A DNA stretch of 63,411 bases, counting the filler, from Globobulimina sp. (taxonomy: Eukaryota): assembly GCA_003354225.1 (NCBI GenBank). It is 17 parts of 17 records of this genome, joined end to end, with 100 filler letters (N's around TTAATTAATTAA, not from the genome) between each part and the next. Parts side by side here need not be neighbours in the genome. Positions count along the whole stretch, not along the records: positions 22,441 to 26,076 come from PIVH01002344.1; 16 more parts are not named here. One strand, 5' to 3'. Made by a program: the position numbers and the translations under genes. A model generated the notes under the pieces. The model saw nothing but the letters and a program-made list of their open reading frames with translations. It was not told the DNA's origin and did no database searches. Shown in pieces: positions 1 through 36,397 of the stretch; position 1 is the stretch's first letter; every line of letters begins with the position of its first letter.

Positions 1-244
1 ATAAATCATTAAAACAGCAAATGTCAATAACATCCATAATGAACAACGGATTTTAAATCGTACACAAAAATACCATAATTTGCCACTGTATCGTTTGAAC
101 CTACTTTGTGGTGGCGGTTGGATTTGAGCTGGCGATCTGTAAAACATTATGAGGACTAGCTTACTTTGGGAAAACCTCAATAACAGAGTTATCCAAAATC
201 TCTTTTATGAAAAAATACATTTTTGTACGTTTAAATAATTTGAA

Positions 245-1445: not shown

Positions 1446-2968
1446 ATGAGCGCAGACCTCCGATATGATGATGTTCAACATGCTATGTCCATTGTAACGG
1501 ATAAGATTGAAGAATCAAAGACCGTGCAACGAATGAAAGAAAAGAATCCCGTTTGTTCGTGTGGATGGACCATTGCTGATACCCGATGTTATATGGTTTC
1601 ATTACAATGTGTTGCCATTCTTGTATTTATCGTTAGTTTGGCAGTCACTTATTCACAATATCAATTATCAGATATTGATATTGAGTGTGAAGGTGATTTT
1701 AAAATGTTTGGACCGTATTATGGAGAAACCACAGTCCAAACAACTACACCTTTACCAACCGCATCACCATTATCTTCATATCCAACTTCTGAACCAACAT
1801 TATATCCGACTTCATCTCCTACTTCTGAGCCAACACTAGAACCAACATCGCCAACTTTATTCCCAACCTCTTATCCAACTGCACCAACATTACCTGTTGG
1901 CACTACACATATTTATGGATGTCCGTGGCCTTCAACCAATATAATTATCAGAGCAGTACCACCATTAATTGGCTTAATTACCAGTGTCATCACAGTGGTT
2001 TTAGCATTTTGTGTCGGTTCATTTATATTAAGAGATATGGATCTTTATAATGATGATAGAAAAGGTACAGTATATATATATCTGAATTTTCAGAGCCATG
2101 CAATAAATCTGAAACAATAAACTGCACATATTGGCAAGTTGACATTATATTGTTTCTATCTGACAGTATAGCGTCCATATTGTTTGATAGTTATGACAAA
2201 CAACTTTGATAGTTATGAGGACTCAAAAACAAAAAATTGAACCACAAAAACAAACATAAATACAAACACAAACACAAAAACGTTTTGGTTGCTTTAATAT
2301 CACAATATTGAGTGATGAAAATGGACCCCATTTTTATATTTAATATTGTATATATTCCAACTGATAGAAAAACACGTTTTTGTTTCATTTCAGTTTCAAA
2401 TAACTTTGATAGTTATGCAGAATAACTTTGTACATAATACGTAGTTATGACAAACAACTTTGATAGTTATGCAGAATAACTTTGTACAAAATACATAGTT
2501 GGGGATAAAAGAGAATTTGCTGACTTATATAGTTATTATTGTTATTTTAGATTTATTCGAAAAGTGATTGGTTATTGTGGTTATTTACAATTTATTTCGT
2601 TTGGTGTTGATCTTTGTAGTTATTTTATTGGCACACAGTATGCATCGACAATATTGAATATAGCTGATAATGATATTTCTAATTTTCAGTTCCAAATACC
2701 ATTAATTGTAGCAATTCCAGTCGCCATCGTATTGCGATTAACACATGATGCAATGTGGCAAAATGTGTATAAACATAAATTCAATTTAGTATCAGATAAA
2801 GGATATCATGGTTCGACTGTTACAGAACCGAATGTCAATATAAATCAAACAATCACCAATGCTGTGAGTGTTGTTGCAATGTCACATGCCGGTGGTTCTC
2901 AAGCTGCTGCTTCTCAGAGAGGTGATATTGCTCCGTACAGACCAGGACCTCAATATGCTAGTAATTAA
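1446..2968 (+). CDS. Multi-pass membrane protein with Pro/Thr/Ser-rich (PTSEPT) extracellular loop (intron 2065-2498)
   Basis: G|GTACAG...ACATAG|TT splice joins ORF 1446 in frame to ORF 2564 (NDDRKVGDKREFADLYSYYCYFRFIRKVIGYCG); several hydrophobic segments. Confidence 0.6.
2188..2488. repeat. Short direct repeats within the 434-nt intron
   Basis: TAGTTATGACAAACAACTTTGATAGTTATG at ~2188 and ~2442; AACTTTGATAGTTATGCAGAATAACTTTGTACA at ~2402 and ~2456. Confidence 0.85.
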
Positions 2969-3741: not shown

Positions 3742-4964
3742 TTAACCTGTTGCCACCAATTTGTATTATCCATAGTCTCACTAAACGCACAATACGCACT
3801 GCCCGCAAAACAGGCAAAGTAGACACTATCCGCACATTTAAATAAATACGGCGGACGTATAGCACCTTCATCAGCATCAAACATCGGATTACATTCACAA
3901 TCCACACACGTAATGTTCCTGAAAGTGGCACCAAACTCATACAACACCAGAAACTGCGCCTGCTCAATGATCAACGTATTAGGCAATGTTCCAGTGACCA
4001 GTCCATCCAATAAAATATCCTCGCCAATCACAGAAGAGCCACTGTTCCATATCTCAACGAATCTGCTACCAAACTCCCCATAGGTATCAGGTTGCGGTTT
4101 GACTTCAGTTATCTTCATATTGTACTCAACCGGACACGTAATCTCCTGCAACTGTGGTAATATCTTATTAAAATCGTCATAATCATAGCTATCCACAGCC
4201 ATATAATCGGTGTCAGGGTCCTGCAATAAACACGTCAGATATTCAGCAGTTAAATCCGGACCAACGCCAAGAACAATCAGTCGAATGCCTGCACACAAAC
4301 GTTGACAAGAAACGTGTTTTTGTTATTCACAGACGCAAAAACACTATATTTGTACCTGCCGCTTTGAGGGAGGGAGCAATGTCACAGACATCGTATGGAC
4401 ATTGATAGCGCGAACATGGATTGCCATCGGTTGTCATAATAGCTACTTTTTGCCGCGCATCCATATGATTTGTGTTATATTCCGTGATGATTGCGTCCAA
4501 TGCGCCACGTGTATTGGTGTATCCTTTGGGATAATAAATGCCAGCAATATACTGCACTAATTCTGCAGTGGTGTAATTTGTTAGTGTTATGCGTGAGGTA
4601 TTGACATTCGTTGAAAATAATGTCCAGCCCACGCGGGAATTTTGGGTCAATCCACCTTGGACGATATCACTTAACCATTCTTTTTCTTGCTTAAATCCTT
4701 CGAAGCCAATGCTTCCGGATACATCGACTGCGAAAATAAAATCGATTTTAACATCGGTGGCGCAGATACAAGCACGGTTAAACCATTCGCAACCACTGAC
4801 TAAACGACACGCTGCTTCTGTTTTTTGTGATTGGCAATCTGCTGAATGGACCACGCCAATTATCGACCAAATTACTGTGTGATCAATTAGAATGCACAGA
4901 TTGTGCAATGAAGGTGTACTGTTAACGTAAACGTACAAGTAAAGTTACATAGAAACGACGACAT
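3742..4964 (-). CDS. Secreted von Willebrand factor A domain protein with following lamin-tail-like domain, 3' partial (introns 4875-4936, 4289-4355)
   Basis: Spliced signal peptide MSSFLCNFTLIWSIIGVVHS; vWA MIDAS DFIFAVDVSGSI...YTNT...MTTDG; then ITEVKPQP...FVEIWNSG (LTD-like). Confidence 0.8.
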
Positions 4965-22340: not shown

Positions 22341-22440
22341 NNNNNNNNNNNNNNNNNNNNNNNNNNNNNNNNNNNNNNNNNNNNTTAATTAATTAANNNN
22401 NNNNNNNNNNNNNNNNNNNNNNNNNNNNNNNNNNNNNNNN

Positions 22441-23307
22441 TGTCGCCGTATCTATATTTAAAATGTACTCTTTTTCTTCGCTCTCAAAATCTGTGTTGTC
22501 TGAGTTTGTGCTAATTGTTCGGTCTAAAATGCCAGATTTATAGCCCAAATCACTTACATTTATTCTTCTTACACTGCTCCGATCACTGAAATTGAGCGAC
22601 ATAGCTTTCGATGTACTTTTATAGATATTCCAGTGATGCCAAAACGACTCCGGTGTATAGTTAAAAATTGTCTGCACTCTCTTTTTCAGCAAACGATCAA
22701 TTTTGACATATTCACGAAATAATTGTAATTCCGCGACATTGGCTAATTGCACTAAAATCTTTTTCGGTGCGATTAATGCTAAATTATTCCATAAATGTCT
22801 CAATTTCTTTGATTGCGTACAATTCTGTTCTCTCAACGCCGCTTTTTCTTTTTTAATTAACTGACTGCTGAATCTTCTAAGAATGGCTGCGTGCGCTTTC
22901 TTAGATTTCTTTGTTGTAACTACAGTTTCGCATATTTTTACATCTAATTTAAATGGATCATAATAATGTAATTTGCAAATGTCATAGAAATCGATATGAT
23001 GTGTTTTCCATAAAAGTTTGCGACCGCAATTTCTATATAATTTATAAATTTGCCACACTGCTTTGCTGAATTTAATACTGACTCCAAAGATTAATCTATG
23101 ATGTTTTGAAGAGAAATTACAATTTGTGGTGTTCTGTGATGAGTGTACTCGTATAAATGATGACGCTGTCGACCGATGAGGCAGAGCTCTAAAATTGGTC
23201 CCCATACATGACTGCTTGATCTGTGCCCTATTTCTAAGGTATAAACTGGTAAAAGATCGCACGTGAGGCCCAAATCGGTTGATCCTAATTCTACACGTTC
23301 TATCCAT
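22441..23307 (-). CDS. Putative N-terminal region of a second PLE ORF, 3' partial
   Basis: Basic helical protein with KLLWKTHHIDFYDICKLHYYDPFKL resembling the PLE N-terminal K..HH..FL..C....P..L motif; begins ~100 nt after the hammerhead. Confidence 0.6.
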
Positions 23308-23409
23308 AAAGGACTGAGATTATTTAATATGAGATATATAAAACAATATTATATAAATATAAACAAAGATTATAGTGTGAATTAGTTGAATCTTAGAAAT
23401 GAATAAGTT

Positions 23410-23451
23410 CACTGAGCTTTCGGCTATCGTAAAGAAGCCATTGTCAAAGTG
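23410..23451 (-). ncRNA. Minimal type I hammerhead ribozyme, U3-A8 core variant
   Basis: Minus strand CACT-TTGACAA-T-GGCT-tctttacgat-AGCC-GAAA-GCTC-AGTG: stem I CACT/AGTG, core UUGACAA, stem II GGCT/AGCC, GAAA, palindromic AGCT stem III, CUC cleavage triplet. Confidence 0.8.
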
Positions 23452-23864
23452 TTTTAAATTGAAATTTATTGTTCAATCACAAAAAAACTACAAAACTCAA
23501 ACAAGTAAAAAACCACAAGACAACACGTGAAATATTGAATATATAATATAAAAATGCAAATATAATTAATGAATCATACAAAGTGATTCGTTTAAATAGA
23601 ATTATTTCAATAAAAAATAAAAATAAAAACAAAAATCCGAAACCAAAATTGAAATAATATAATAATCATAAAACACAATACTTCGACAATGTTAATCTAT
23701 AAAAAGTAACATAATCAGTACTTGGGGACTTAGAAGACAGTAAAAATTAATTAAATTAACATTACCGCTACGCCCCTACTAACAACATACCATAATATAG
23801 ATACAAAACCTTGTAATAAAATAGAATATAAAATATAAAACAATGTAACAAAACTGTAAAACTC

Positions 23865-26075
23865 TCATAACATCGATGCGAATGCTTCGTATTGGTCCTC
23901 ATCGTCTGCCTTTAGGAGTACATTTTTCTCCCACCTTTTCCACTTAGTACTAAATGGTATTCTTGGCTCTGGCTCTAAACTAAAACTAATATCCATCGTA
24001 TTATTCTCATCATCGATATCTCCAAATAACTCCGCCAATTCTTCCGGTTTTTGTATATTATTAAACGACAAATCCAAGTCTAGATTTATGTCATTTTCAT
24101 GCAAAATTATCAGATTTTGATTCTGTTGTAATTTGTCTTCCTCTTTCAACTCGAAATCAATGTTATTCAAATCCGATACATTCAATACATTCACTGACAA
24201 ACCCGATAAATTTGATATATTCGATAGATTTCGTTCTTTTTCAATGAGTTTATCCTTTAAAGCATTCTTTTCCGCAATGCATTCATCCAAAATTAGTGTT
24301 TGATTTATAAGATTTGCGGAAATATCACCCTCGTTTTCTAAAACTTTTTTTGTTAATAATACCAATGAATTATTGATTGCGGAATTGATTTGTGTCAATT
24401 TTATTTCCTCTGAATCCAGAATCGACCAATCCGAAATATTTTCGTTTAAATCCGAATTCGACTTATTATTATTATCAAAAAATGCATCCCAATCAATATC
24501 ATTCACCACTTCATTTTCGTCGATTGTTGAGATAGTTATGTTTGATAATTGGCTGTTTTTGTTGTTGTTGATGTTATTATTATTTCTATGACAAAAAGAG
24601 TGAAAATTCAATTCCGATTTAAACGTATTAATATCAGCAATTTCTCTCTTTTTTTCTTTGTTTAAAAAATCCGTCTTTCTCTTCAACTCTTTCGCTCTCA
24701 TTTCGCTCTCCAAATTAATAAGTTCTTCATCCACTTTCTTGGTAAAGTCGCGCGAAAACGTTCCCGTATTATTCGCATCTTTTCCGCTGTTCATACCGTG
24801 CGTAATCGCACAATATTGAGTTTGATAAAATATTTCTTCTTTACACAGTTTTGCTTCAATAACAAATCTGTTTTCGCCTTTCATTTGTTTCAAAATACAC
24901 GTTTTCATTAATTTTAAAGGGTTTCCCTTATTCAGCTCATAACATTTCGTCCCGTCAATACCTAAAAAGTGCAATACTTCCCCGGTATATTCCTTTTTTA
25001 TTGATCTTAAAATTATCGCTAATAAACCCAAATTATTTCTTATTTTTCCATCGATATCATAAAAATTGTTATTTATCAAAACTTTATATACTTTTAAAAT
25101 GTCTCTCGTATGCTCCCCCGTCCTCGTTTTAAATTGACGGCTGCCACTTTTCCCTCTTCCACATTTACCAATGTATGGTTTCTTGCAATTATCGCAATAT
25201 ATTACATAAACAATATCGCGCGTAAAGCACGAAGACCTGTTACATTTGACTGATTGTCCCGTAATTACCGATTTCCATTTCTTTGTATTATCCATAATAT
25301 GCGTAAATTTCCTACAAACGCAGTCATCTCTGCCTTTGGTTACATTTAAGTCACTCAACATTTTGCAACACATAAAACCTTTCCAACGCTCCAAATTCTC
25401 CAAATTTATTTTATTTTTATCGATAATGATTATTTTGCCAACGTTGCAAAAATTCGATATCGTTTCATCCATAAAATCTGACTTTTTTTCTTCTGGATCT
25501 AATCTGAACGTATTTGGCGATAATACGGCGTCTAAATTGTTGTATACTTTGTAACTAATTTTAAATTTTTCCAATGGAAAAATAGCGGCCAGTTTTTGAT
25601 CGATTTTTATCCATTTATTATATGCCAATTTTAATAAATCATAAATATTTGGGATATTATTATGAAATTTGATGACAAACCAAAATTGTTTGTCTTTCAC
25701 CAATTTTGCCAAATACTTTATCTCTTCGTCACTCTTCGAATCCTCCTCAACCTCTTTATTTTCCATAATATTGTCAAAATATTTTCTTTTTCTTCGTTCT
25801 CTGATAAAATATGGCTGTTTCCATATTTTTAAGGCTTGCTTCTTTGATAATTTCCTGAATTTATTAAAAATATTGTTTACTTGCCATACATTATGGTCTC
25901 TCGCAATGAGATAACTCTTATATTTCTTAAATTGTTCATCGATAAATTGTTCGTCGGAAATACTTCTTATTCGCAATGCCGACGACGAGATTGTGCCTCT
26001 TTTTTGGTGCCGTGCATGACACGAATCATTTTGCAGTGTGCAGTGAGTATCGGTGTCTTTTGAATGTACATCCAC
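23865..26075 (-). CDS. PLE polyprotein C-terminal part: RT thumb, Cys-rich linker, GIY-YIG endonuclease, long acidic tail; 5' partial
   Basis: DVHSKDTD..CTL..DSCH..H.K..I..SALRIR (PLE thumb); IVYVIYCDNCKKPYIG...R..EH...HF...E..Y...GMN (GIY-YIG with CCHH). Confidence 0.9.
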   Translation of the reverse strand: MDVHSKDTDTHCTLQNDSCHARHQKRGTISSSALRIRSISDEQFIDEQFKKYKSYLIARDHNVWQVNNIFNKFRKLSKKQALKIWKQPYFIRERRKRKYFDNIMENKEVEEDSKSDEEIKYLAKLVKDKQFWFVIKFHNNIPNIYDLLKLAYNKWIKIDQKLAAIFPLEKFKISYKVYNNLDAVLSPNTFRLDPEEKKSDFMDETISNFCNVGKIIIIDKNKINLENLERWKGFMCCKMLSDLNVTKGRDDCVCRKFTHIMDNTKKWKSVITGQSVKCNRSSCFTRDIVYVIYCDNCKKPYIGKCGRGKSGSRQFKTRTGEHTRDILKVYKVLINNNFYDIDGKIRNNLGLLAIILRSIKKEYTGEVLHFLGIDGTKCYELNKGNPLKLMKTCILKQMKGENRFVIEAKLCKEEIFYQTQYCAITHGMNSGKDANNTGTFSRDFTKKVDEELINLESEMRAKELKRKTDFLNKEKKREIADINTFKSELNFHSFCHRNNNNINNNKNSQLSNITISTIDENEVVNDIDWDAFFDNNNKSNSDLNENISDWSILDSEEIKLTQINSAINNSLVLLTKKVLENEGDISANLINQTLILDECIAEKNALKDKLIEKERNLSNISNLSGLSVNVLNVSDLNNIDFELKEEDKLQQNQNLIILHENDINLDLDLSFNNIQKPEELAELFGDIDDENNTMDISFSLEPEPRIPFSTKWKRWEKNVLLKADDEDQYEAFASML

Positions 26076-26358
26076 CNNNNNNNNNNNNNNNNNNNNNNNN
26101 NNNNNNNNNNNNNNNNNNNNTTAATTAATTAANNNNNNNNNNNNNNNNNNNNNNNNNNNNNNNNNNNNNNNNNNNNAAATTTAAAATTTTTTTAAAAAAA
26201 ATTTTTAATTTTTTTAAAAAAATAAATAAAAAAAAAATGACAAAAGAAAAATCCACCCACATATACATAAAATTACTGAATCATACAATATGTTTAATTT
26301 GGATTGATATATGTCAGATGTAAGTAGCTATAATTGAGTAAAGTTCAGTTGTGTTGGT

Positions 26359-27717
26359 TTAGAATTCATCGCCTTCGTCACCTTCCATATCATCATCAAC
26401 AGATTCTTGTGCAACTTCTTCATAATCTTTTTCCATCGCAGCTAAATCTTCTCGAGCTTCACCAAATTCACCTTCTTCCATTCCTTCACCAACATACCAA
26501 TGCACAAATGCTCTTTTTGCATACATTAAATCAAATTTATGGTCCATTCTTCCCATAACCTCGGCAATAGCCGTCGTATTCGAGATCATTAAGACTGATC
26601 TTTGTACTTTGGCCAAATCACCACCAGGTACAACAGTGGGCGGTTGGTAGTTAATGCCAACTTTAAATCCGGTCGGGCACCAATCCACAAATCTAATCGT
26701 TCGCTTTGTTTTGACAGTGCCAATTGCAGCATTTACATCTTTTGGGACAACATCGCCACGATACATCATACAGCACGCCATATATTTGCCATGTCGCGGG
26801 TCACATTTTACCATTTGATTAGCGGGTTCAAACACAGAGTTTGTGATTTCAGCAACGGATAATTGTTCATGATATGCGATCTCTGCAGATATAACCGGTG
26901 CAAATGCACACAGTGGGAAATGTATACGTGGATACGGCACTAAATTTGTTTGAAATTCTGTTAAATCCACATTTAATGCGCCATCAAATCTTAATGACGC
27001 AGTCACGGAAGAGATACATTGTGCTAGTAAACGATTTAAATTTGTATAGGTTGGTCGTTCAATGCCTAAATTGCGACGGCAAATGTCATATAATGCTTCA
27101 TTATCGACCATAAAGGCAACATCAGAATGTTCCATCATAGCATGTGCACATAACACGGAATTATAGGGTTCAACCACAGCAGTGGCAATTTGCGGAGATG
27201 GATACACTGCAAACTCAATTTTGGATTTTTTACCATAATCAACGGATAGTCGCTCTAATAATAATGAACCAAAGCCAGAACCTGTGCCGCCGCCAAATGA
27301 ATGGTATATCATAAAGCCTTGTAAACCGGTACAATTATCTGCTAATTTACGTATACGATCTAATACTAAGTCAATTACTTCTTTTCCGATGGTATAATGA
27401 CCTCTGGCATAATTATTTGCGGCATCTTCTTTGCCAGAGATTAATTGTTCGGGATGGAATAATTGCCGATATGTTCCGGTGCGAACCTCGTCAATGACGG
27501 TTGGTTCTAAATCAACCATTACTGTGCGTGGAACATGTTTGCCTGCACCGGTCTCACTAAAAAATGTATTAAATGAGTCATCTCCGCCACCAATTGTTTT
27601 GTCGGAAGGCATTTGGCCATCGGGTTGAATACCATGTTCTAAACAAAATAATTCCCAGCATGCGTTACCTACCTGAACACCTGCTTGGCCAATATGAATT
27701 GTAATACATTCTCTCAT
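26359..27717 (-). CDS. TUBA: Alpha-tubulin, canonical, intronless
   Basis: MRECI, K40 loop [19 protein letters not shown], acidic tail ending EF; 452 aa. Confidence 0.99.
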
Positions 27718-34464: not shown

Positions 34465-36141
34465 ATGCGTGAAATTATTTCCTTACATGTCGGCCAAGCT
34501 GGAATACAAGTTGGAAGTATGCAAATCATTCATATTATGCATGAAAATAAACCATATATTACGTGACAATAAACCAAAATAACTAGATTCATGTTGGCAA
34601 CTATATGTCACCGAACATGGCATAAATCCCGATGGAACCCTAAATGACCCGAATAGTAAACAACACCAAAAGAAAACCTACGGAGACCCAGCATTTTCCA
34701 CCTTTTTTATAGAAACCGGCGCAGGGAAACATGTGCCACGATGTGTATTTTTAGACTTAGAGCCAACTGTAATTGATCAGGTTCGTAATGGAGAATATAA
34801 AAAATTATTCCATCCCGAACAATTAATATCTGGTAAAGAAGATGCCGCAAATAATTATGCACGCGGTCACTATACCATTGGTAAAGAAATTGTTGATTTA
34901 TGTTTAGATCGCATTCGTCGATTAGCGGACAATTGTTCTGGTTTACAGGGATTTTTATTTTTTAATTCTGTTGGTGGCGGCACTGGATCAGGTATTTTTA
35001 TTTTTTTTTATTTTGCAATCTCATTTTGACACAAAATAACGATTTAATTTGCAACTAGCAATCTGAGAAATGATTTTTGTTCGGTTTTTACCTAACTTTC
35101 ATTGGGTTTGCACGTACTTTTTGTACGTATATAAGGTTTGGGATCGTTATTATTGGAGCGATTATCCGTAGATTACGGCAAAAAATCGAAATTAGGTTTT
35201 ACAGTTTTCCCATCGCCGCAAGTATCCACCACAGTGGTCGAGCCATATAATTCTGTGTTATCCACCCATTCATTATTAGAACACACAGATGTCGCTGTTA
35301 TGTTGGATAACGAAGCTATTTACGACATTTGTAAAAATTCATTGGATATCGAACGGCCAAAATATGACAATTTAAACAGGTTTGCAATGCACACACATAT
35401 CCGAGTTGTTATATATATATTTATTGTAATATGATGTAATAATAATAAAAAAAATAAATATATTTTAGATTGATTGCACAAACCATCTCATCGTTAACAG
35501 CTTCGTTGCGATTTGAAGGTGCCCTAAATGTGGACATAAATGAGTTCCAAACGAATTTAGTCCCTTATCCACGTATACATTTTATGTTATCTTCGTACGC
35601 TCCGATCATAACGCCCTCGAAGGCGCGTCACGAGCAAATGAGTGTGAATGAGATCACGACCCAAGCATTCGAGCCCCGCTCTATGATGGCCAAATGCGAC
35701 CCGCGAATGGGCAAATATATGGCCACCTGCTTAATGTATCGCGGTGACGTAGTTCCTACGGAAGTGTCTGCCGCGGTGTCTATGATTAAGACGAAGCGAA
35801 CCATCCAGTTTGTGGATTGGTGTCCGACTGGTTTTAAAGTGGGCATTAATTATCAGAAACCATCAGTAGTACCAAACGGTAATTTAGCACAAGTCTCGAG
35901 AGCAGTTTGCATGATTTCAAATTCGACCGCCATTGCAGAGGTTTTCAGTCGCATTGATCATAAATTTGATATGATGTACGCAAAGAGAGCATTCGTGCAT
36001 TGGTATGTCGGCGAAGGAATGGAGGAAGGCGAATTTTCAGAGGCTAGAGAGGATTTGGCTGCGTTGGAAAAGGATTATGAAGAAGTTGGAGCAGATTCGA
36101 TGGATCCTGATTATGATGAAAATGATGATGATCATTATTAA
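34465..36141 (+). CDS. TUBA: Alpha-tubulin paralogue with three introns (34517-34586, 34992-35135, 35380-35468)
   Basis: Spliced product [21 protein letters not shown]...GGGTGSG...[23 protein letters not shown]...Y; all three GT-AG junctions keep frame. Confidence 0.97.
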
Positions 36142-36397
36142 ATATATTATTGATTGATTGAATTTTATTTTTTTGCTTAGTTGGATAAATTGACTTTTTT
36201 TTTTTGCTTTTGATTTGATTGTAGTTTAAGTGGTTGGAAAATATACTAAATTTATAATTTATTTACATTTACAGATTTACTCGAGATATTTTTGTATCTA
36301 AACTTTAATAATGTAAACACATTTCATCTGAATTTTCAGCGTCAGAATGCAAGCAAATAACAAACAAAAACTCTAGTGACAATATTTTCTAGCTTTG

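Follow-up and report, generated by a model that had tools for sequence, protein, structure and literature searches.

Penelope-like elements (PLEs) of animals carry minimal type I hammerhead ribozymes in their flanking repeats. According to the parts of PMC4209133 on which this comparison draws, such motifs have a helix I of 4–5 bp and a conserved G10.1-C11.1 pair, an unpaired nucleotide between A9 and position 10.1 is recurrent, and positions 15.2–16.2 are palindromic, with no helix III hairpin, implying dimers; these minimal hammerheads cleave poorly in vitro. A covariant of the core having U3-A8 was found in the same work via the Schistosoma element Cercyon and gave about 1,300 hits in Schistosoma. 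The hammerheads of protist and fungal PLEs are described there as monomeric, with a long helix III. It has also been reported, in the portions of Craig et al. 2021 (PMC8557442) used here, that canonical hammerheads are present in all PLEs except Naiad and Chlamys, and that a C-terminal endonuclease has so far been recorded in PLEs of animals only, bar one transfer to conifers; among endonuclease-bearing PLEs at large, the permuted Chlamys group is a further exception. For an element of Anolis, the excerpted text of PMC11167929 states that cleavage needed protein and depended on the 3-8 pair, and that it was dispensable for insertion in vitro.

The locus described here lies in a window of 63,411 nucleotides (this being the whole stretch of DNA that was analysed) from an assembly of Globobulimina sp. 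The window consists of 17 contigs of 3,632–3,641 nt, arranged by length and joined by 44 N + TTAATTAATTAA + 44 N (e.g., at 22341–22440 and 26077–26176); since it joins unrelated contigs, gene order across the linkers is meaningless. On one of these contigs, two open reading frames (ORFs) are separated by a spacer that holds a short hammerhead-like motif (Table 1). As far as the sequence allows us to judge, this motif is probably a true PLE hammerhead of the minimal type I form, located on the sense strand of a pseudo-LTR-like spacer that follows a reverse transcriptase-endonuclease (RT-EN) ORF. Our confidence in it derives from the context, i.e., the PLE ORF, the rarity of the motif in the shuffled spacer and the recurrence of the motif in PLEs, and not from the bare pattern.

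Table 1. Features of the hammerhead-bearing contig, given in window positions.
Feature	Position	Strand	Basis or remark
PLE ORF fragment, 736 codons, open at contig end	23865..26075	-	HMMER relatives
Reverse transcriptase, C-terminal part (about residues 1–100), cut by contig end	25776..26075	-	Matches and alignment
GIY-YIG-matching endonuclease region	24786..25223	-	Limits set by eye from the alignment
Inter-ORF spacer, 557 nt, 23% G+C, putative pseudo-LTR equivalent	23308..23864	-	Holds the candidate hammerhead
Segment of high summed contig depth	23173..23538	.	Holds the candidate hammerhead; three bins, four runs
Candidate minimal hammerhead of type I, with U3-A8	23410..23451	-	Sequence reading, descriptor match, spacer shuffles, class-level covariation
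Helix I, CACU/AGUG	23448–23451 with 23410–23413	-	4 bp, all Watson-Crick
Core U3 U4 G5 A6 C7 A8 A9 (UUGACAA)	23447–23441	-	
Unpaired extra U between A9 and 10.1	23440	-	
Helix II, GGCU/AGCC, closed by G10.1-C11.1	23439–23436 with 23425–23422	-	All Watson-Crick
G12 A13 A14 A15.1 (GAAA)	23421–23418	-	
Palindrome AGCU (A15.1 G15.2 C16.2 U16.1)	23418–23415	-	
C17	23414	-	Cleavage predicted at the 23414/23413 junction
Downstream ORF, 289 codons, reaching contig end	22441..23307	-	28-aa match only

Read on the minus strand from 23451 to 23410, the motif is CACT TTGACAA T GGCT TCTTTACGAT AGCC GAAA GCTC AGTG, exactly as the first-pass annotation had written it, and every sequence feature of the anatomy of minimal type I PLE hammerheads is found in it. 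The conserved hammerhead core is complete (UUGACAA ... GAAA G C U C) and its 3-8 pair is present, as U3-A8; the compensatory change from C3-G8 that had been proposed is borne out by the sequence, and the variant is documented in the text of PMC4209133 that we refer to. The hairpin of a monomeric helix III is absent from the motif, in which positions 15.2/16.2 are palindromic instead, and in the RNAfold prediction helix II gains two more pairs plus a bulge. The motif is located 414 nt past the stop codon of the upstream PLE ORF, on the same (sense) strand, and the next ORF with an ATG begins at 23307, that is, 106 nt past C17, in line with the earlier estimate of about 100 nt.

The comparison with the minimal hammerheads of animal PLEs, as presented in the same parts of PMC4209133, discloses an extensive likeness: both are of type I, with the A9-10.1 nucleotide, G10.1-C11.1, a palindromic 15.2/16.2, U3-A8 and a site in the sense strand of the spacer. 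Helix I has 4 bp in the window and 4–5 bp in animals, whereas helix II has four continuous pairs in the window (six with the bulge) and six to eight in animals; moreover, the host is probably rhizarian, in the ORF the endonuclease is followed by a long tail of low complexity, and the window motif is known from sequence alone. Since U3-A8, the extra base, G10.1-C11.1 and the palindromic AGCU were published for animal PLEs in 2014 (PMC4209133), the motif is not a new ribozyme type, and the novelty at first attributed to U3-A8, to the additional A9-10.1 nucleotide and to the palindromic helix III was overstated. With the endonuclease-less, telomere-associated PLEs (Athena, Coprina), as portrayed in the excerpts of PMC4209133 and PMC8557442, the locus shares a non-animal host and a PLE hammerhead; however, their hammerheads, with a long helix III, are already stable and active in monomeric form, whereas the window motif lacks a monomeric helix III, and the window element encodes the endonuclease that they lack. 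In the case of Poseidon PAc of Anolis carolinensis, described in the quoted sections of PMC11167929, a PLE hammerhead is likewise found near the start of an ORF, and its 3-8 core pair is functionally required as a pair; the window has that pair as U3-A8, whereas PAc has C3-G8 and a hammerhead that overlaps the start codon.

The first-pass annotation had placed the motif between two Penelope-like ORFs. For the upstream ORF this holds well. A HMMER search with its residues 1–450 retrieved 112 matches, 21 of them at E up to 1e-10 and nine at E up to 1e-30. When ten of these relatives were compared with Pfam, RVT_1 was found in five, two of which also harbor GIY-YIG, and the other five were without a family; no Pfam family, GIY-YIG included, was assigned directly to either of the flanking ORFs. 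The strongest link is to P0115 (1261 aa), whose residues 698–1151 align with residues 5–458 of the upstream ORF at E 4e-61, and P0115 matches in turn P0110, a protein with Pfam RVT_1 and GIY-YIG, over both the reverse transcriptase (E 8e-13) and the endonuclease (E 4e-7). Residues 2–84 of the ORF match the stretch lying just past RVT_1 in P0037 (700–783) and P0114 (748–830), and the counterpart of residues 253–355 is the GIY-YIG region in P0105 and P0110, both of which combine RT and GIY-YIG. In P0005, P0013 and P0018, reverse transcriptase motifs precede the KxTDxHC...SCH motif, the one that opens the window ORF; P0005 and P0115 show the order RT-then-endonuclease within one ORF. Therefore, on the basis of these matches, the upstream ORF is read as the C-terminal part of a PLE ORF of the RT-then-endonuclease kind, cut by the contig end. 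Its layout comprises the end of the reverse transcriptase (with a KDTDTHCTL...SCH motif), a linker, the GIY-YIG endonuclease, with the signature VYVIYCDNCKKPYIGK...RTGEH, and an Asn-rich tail; the full reverse transcriptase is present in the relatives P0115, P0013 and P0005, and only its end in the window. An atlas feature search placed 11 of 30 matches in a GIY-YIG-labelled cluster set, 22% of whose members carry the family. A word-index protein search retrieved no relatives of the upstream ORF, a PDB sequence search with its residues 1–450 gave chance-level matches only, and a metagenome scan with an alignment of five endonuclease sequences matched 89 stretches, with no relative among them; a larger alignment, of 13 sequences, contained no stretch of sufficient conservation for such a scan.

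An element of the Naiad/Chlamys type, with the endonuclease ahead of the reverse transcriptase, was also considered and rejected, the relatives being RT-first and the window ORF opening with the end of the reverse transcriptase. As a side observation, the endonuclease is followed by a tail of about 300 residues (23865–24785, minus strand) that is Asn-rich and coiled-coil-like; similarly long tails are present in P0003 and P0010, and in the relatives P0006 and P0115 the C-terminus is formed instead by a basic, conserved segment. Asn-rich tails after the endonuclease lie outside the usual PLE plan.

For the Penelope-like character claimed for the downstream ORF there is a single link. The ORF shares with P0012 (1675 aa) a stretch of 28 residues (97–124 against 6–33), 13 of which are identical, with E 0.002 in the pairwise comparison and E 0.046 against 113 sequences; no Pfam family, no usable atlas match and no word-index relative among longer proteins was obtained for it. 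Judging from this short match, the ORF might encode the N-terminal portion of a PLE copy that follows in tandem. A repeat of the spacer is not visible within the 3.6-kb contig.

In order to assess how often such a motif is expected to occur, the window was searched with a descriptor composed of 4-bp helices (G-U allowed), UUGANAA, 0–1 inserted base, GAAA, 0–8 nt and UH, and the null model consisted of 300 first-order Markov simulations of 61.8 kb, searched on both strands. A single site was found in the whole window, against a simulated mean of 0.107, and at least one site occurred in 9.3% of the simulations. Two sites were seen with the core relaxed to YUGANRA (0.17 expected), and 0.61 sites per window are expected with NUGANNA, i.e., with any N3/N8. 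The canonical CUGANGA core gave no site either in the window or in the 300 simulations; the prediction that a CUGANGA pattern search would miss the motif proved correct, and Rfam misses it too. The bare pattern is not convincing at the scale of the whole window. The second relaxed match (61509–61457, minus strand), which has a UUGAUGA core (U3 with G8) and a 22-nt loop and is without supporting context, looks like chance-level noise for the relaxed descriptor.

One might suspect, then, that an AT-rich spacer string simply fits a relaxed descriptor, with no RNA structure under selection. The expectations just given for the window (0.107, or 0.61 with any N3/N8), together with the random look of the second match, lend themselves to such a reading, and so does the fold energy: the 42-nt fold has −8.4 kcal/mol and a z of −1.38, 22 of 200 shuffles being equally stable, and the 101-nt fold has a z of −0.72, so that the fold energy of the motif is not distinctive. 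The Rfam hammerhead models gave no match in the whole window at the gathering score and none in 23300–23560 (261 nt) at E up to 10, which might also be counted on this side; since the same models miss six PLE-associated control loci as well, their silence on the window motif weighs little. If the element is a PLE, a hammerhead is expected in the 557-nt spacer, on its sense strand, hence a narrower test was carried out there. In 20,000 dinucleotide shuffles of the spacer sense strand, a motif with C3-G8 or U3-A8 arose once, which argues against chance, and a motif with any N3/N8 arose 12 times; when G10.1-C11.1 and the palindromic 15.2/16.2 were also demanded, the count was 0 of 20,000, bearing in mind that these demands were set after seeing the motif. 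The motif also has the inserted base after A9, and it sits where PLE hammerheads sit.

Further evidence against a chance match comes from metagenomes, which were scanned for the core of the motif with the pattern TTGANAATGG-N8-18-CCGAAAGCTH, helix I and the outer helix II being left free. The scan yielded at least 119 loci, seven of which (L002, L006, L032, L064, L072, L079 and L087) encode a PLE reverse transcriptase or endonuclease in a tblastn search with 11 PLE-family proteins. Since the loci were sought with a pattern taken from the window motif, the core that the seven share with it (UUGANAAU GG ... CC GAAAGCU H) is identical by construction; their helices I and II covary. A helix I of at least 3 bp together with a helix II of at least 4 bp is present in seven of these seven loci and in one, L053, of the 112 others listed (Fisher p = 1.4e-10), so that this type of core is linked to PLE coding. 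Across the window and five distinct sequences, picked by PLE coding content alone and leaving out L053, 93.8% of the cells of the eight proximal pairs are paired, compared with 62.8% in shuffles, none of 500 of which reaches the observed value, and with 23–47% when the helix partners are slid; compensatory two-sided changes occur in six of the eight helix pairs, and the addition of L053 brings the paired fraction to 92.7%. In six of the seven loci the motif lies on the strand of the PLE ORF, in five it is 103–545 nt past the stop codon, compared with 414 nt in the window, and in L032 and L072 it is located between the stop of an ORF and the next long ORF. The proteins of the loci match P0037, P0105 and P0110, and among the loci only L006 weakly matches the family of the window protein (P0013, E 2e-6); the window protein itself (P0001) has no tblastn match among the 119 loci listed, and for this reason the covariation backs the motif class in other PLE lineages rather than copies of this element. 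At the level of sequence, the covariation of the helices shows selection for the fold, not for cutting. Taken with the spacer shuffles, the link to PLE coding makes a chance match highly improbable.

Some of the loci deserve mention in their own right. In L006, identical hammerheads lie inverted (56–103, minus strand; 4459–4506, plus strand) at both ends of a 4.6-kb contig with one PLE ORF inside, which is the inverted layout described for PLE insertions. L053, a metagenome contig of 3.5 kb in which no PLE coding sequence was detected, contains a well-folded U3-A8 minimal hammerhead (2252–2298, minus strand), with a helix I of 4 bp and a helix II of 5 bp, and it may be a non-autonomous element; just upstream of the motif there is a sub-threshold Rfam match to MIR7127 (34 bits, the gathering score being 100). 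About 20 of the loci L001–L119 (e.g., L007, L012, L020 and L022) share the conserved stretch TTGAGAATGGCGGGCTGAATACCTCGCCCGAAAGCTC, which fits the search pattern and forms no hammerhead helices; it is probably part of a conserved gene or RNA, belonging to some abundant organism and without relation to the hammerhead.

If the motif acts as a ribozyme, transcripts reading through from element to element would contain it. Helix III cannot close within a single motif, where nothing but G and C would lie between A15.1 and U16.1; therefore, two copies would pair, through the palindrome AGCU (a 4-bp helix III) and through helix I in trans, to form a double hammerhead. Another possibility is that folding is assisted by the protein of the element itself, by analogy with the one reconstituted PLE, that of Anolis. 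With U3-A8 standing in for the C3-G8 core pair, cleavage after C17 would release an upstream fragment whose end, GAAAGCUC, bears a 2',3'-cyclic phosphate, and the downstream RNA would begin with a 5'-OH at AGUG, 106 nt ahead of the next ORF. The double-hammerhead pairing is allowed, at −14.7 kcal/mol; it is less stable than the predicted minimum for the dimer, −18.8, and than two monomers, −16.8. That the motif cuts tandem transcripts in vivo is something that we infer.

It is conceivable, in this regard, that the motif derives from a real hammerhead and is now non-cutting, or is a binding or folding site for protein, RNA processing not being its function. A fold other than the double-hammerhead pairing is predicted to have the minimum energy, and several observations on related elements point the same way: the in vitro activity of minimal PLE hammerheads is low (in the text of PMC4209133 considered here), the Anolis PLE was cut only with protein, core mutants left its insertion in vitro unchanged and no RNA-seq ends were seen at its cut site (all from the sections of PMC11167929 cited above), and, according to the same portions of PMC8557442, Naiad elements and most of the Chlamys group proliferate with no hammerhead at all. 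On the other hand, the catalytic positions are all intact in the sequence, the sole change in the core being the compensated U3-A8, and both flanking ORFs are open over their 736 and 289 codons, from which this copy of the element can be taken as young. The covariation of the helices within the class also goes against a decayed motif, although selection for the fold is not selection for cutting. On balance, loss of cutting or a role confined to protein binding or folding appears improbable, and a genuine hammerhead is still the reading that we prefer.

The element's own copies were sought in the contigs (not the reads) of four public sequencing runs, representing two organism codes, which were aligned to the hammerhead contig. 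In run X1, 175 contigs were aligned, 99 of them at less than 90% identity, and the element is therefore a diverged repeat family. Neither the element nor the spacer recurs within the window, and the 42-mer has no second copy there at up to three mismatches. Among the indels listed, at least 12 fall at 23393–23407 and 23456–23489 and none inside 23409–23455; in one unaligned contig end the sequence running from the 5' strand of helix II through the core to the 5' strand of helix I is preserved, its single change affecting the free position N7. The summed contig depth over 23173–23538 is 28–368 in X1, 180–217 in X2, 86–332 in X3 and 855–1388 in X5, compared with about 4–14 in the adjacent ORF bins; the ratio ranges roughly from 6 to 140 times, where summed contig depth does not equal copy number. 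This suggests that the hammerhead-bearing segment exists at a much higher copy number than the ORF.

Such a distribution might indicate that the motif belongs mainly to a short, highly repeated, non-autonomous element (about 23173–23538), mobilised by the PLE. This element would resemble a retrozyme or be a solo pseudo-LTR, and its double cleavage might be followed by circularisation. Besides the depth ratio, which recurs in the four runs and both organism codes, this reading would account for the fact that the homology of some contigs breaks at 23409/23410, exactly at the 3' end of the motif. The literature offers parallels, as most minimal hammerheads are single, dispersed motifs (according to PMC4209133) and animal non-LTR retrozymes are related to PLE pseudo-LTRs (as stated in the excerpt of 10.64898/2026.07.22.740005). 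These retrozymes are, in the same excerpt, short repeated hammerhead units, and the window segment is likewise far deeper than the ORF; its host is not an animal, however, and its repetition is known from contig depth alone. Against a short element, besides the distance between summed contig depth and copy number, contigs cannot reveal tandem order, and no tandem joint was present among the matches listed. We consider this reading rather unlikely; it does not exclude the main explanation, with which it is compatible, namely, a PLE hammerhead in a pseudo-LTR-like spacer.

As for the host, a rhizarian had been proposed, and this is plausible. Two of the close PLE relatives, P0004 with 51% identity and P0013 with 40%, come from EukProt and belong to the foraminifer Bolivina argentea. 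An alpha-tubulin gene located at 26359–27717 (minus strand), on another contig of the same assembly and not a genomic neighbour of the hammerhead, is 91% identical to the cluster P0215, which has members from the radiolarian Astrolonche serrata. Judging from these sequences, the host is likely a retarian and thus a rhizarian, contamination of the relatives' transcriptomes being possible. Alongside, it can be observed that this alpha-tubulin gene and a second one, at about 34681–36142 (plus strand) on a different contig, are 74–76% identical in DNA, and that the first is 94–98% identical to JGI proteins whose contigs measure about 1.5 kb. The literature, searched as main texts, yielded no paper reporting PLEs from Reticulomyxa, Foraminifera or Rhizaria, and "Penelope-like" appeared beside these taxon names only in a reference-list citation of Craig et al.

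The ribozyme is one more example of the class described in 2014, and the probable host is the unusual part. A rhizarian host, if true, would mean that RT-then-endonuclease PLEs reach beyond animals. Going further, and quite tentatively, since we regard it as somewhat doubtful, it might be proposed that retarians harbor a PLE lineage of their own, of the RT-then-endonuclease kind and with an animal-style, dimer-dependent U3-A8 hammerhead, in which a segment of about 370 nt is amplified in a retrozyme-like manner beyond the coding part. Such a lineage, if real, would break both the rule that endonuclease-bearing PLEs are confined to animals and the rule that the hammerheads of protist PLEs are of the monomeric type with a long helix III, and a protist would then have repeats of the retrozyme-like kind. 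If a retarian element does have a dimeric hammerhead in the animal style, this would also bear on the timing of the partnership between hammerheads and PLEs, as well as on the transfer of elements between animals and protists.
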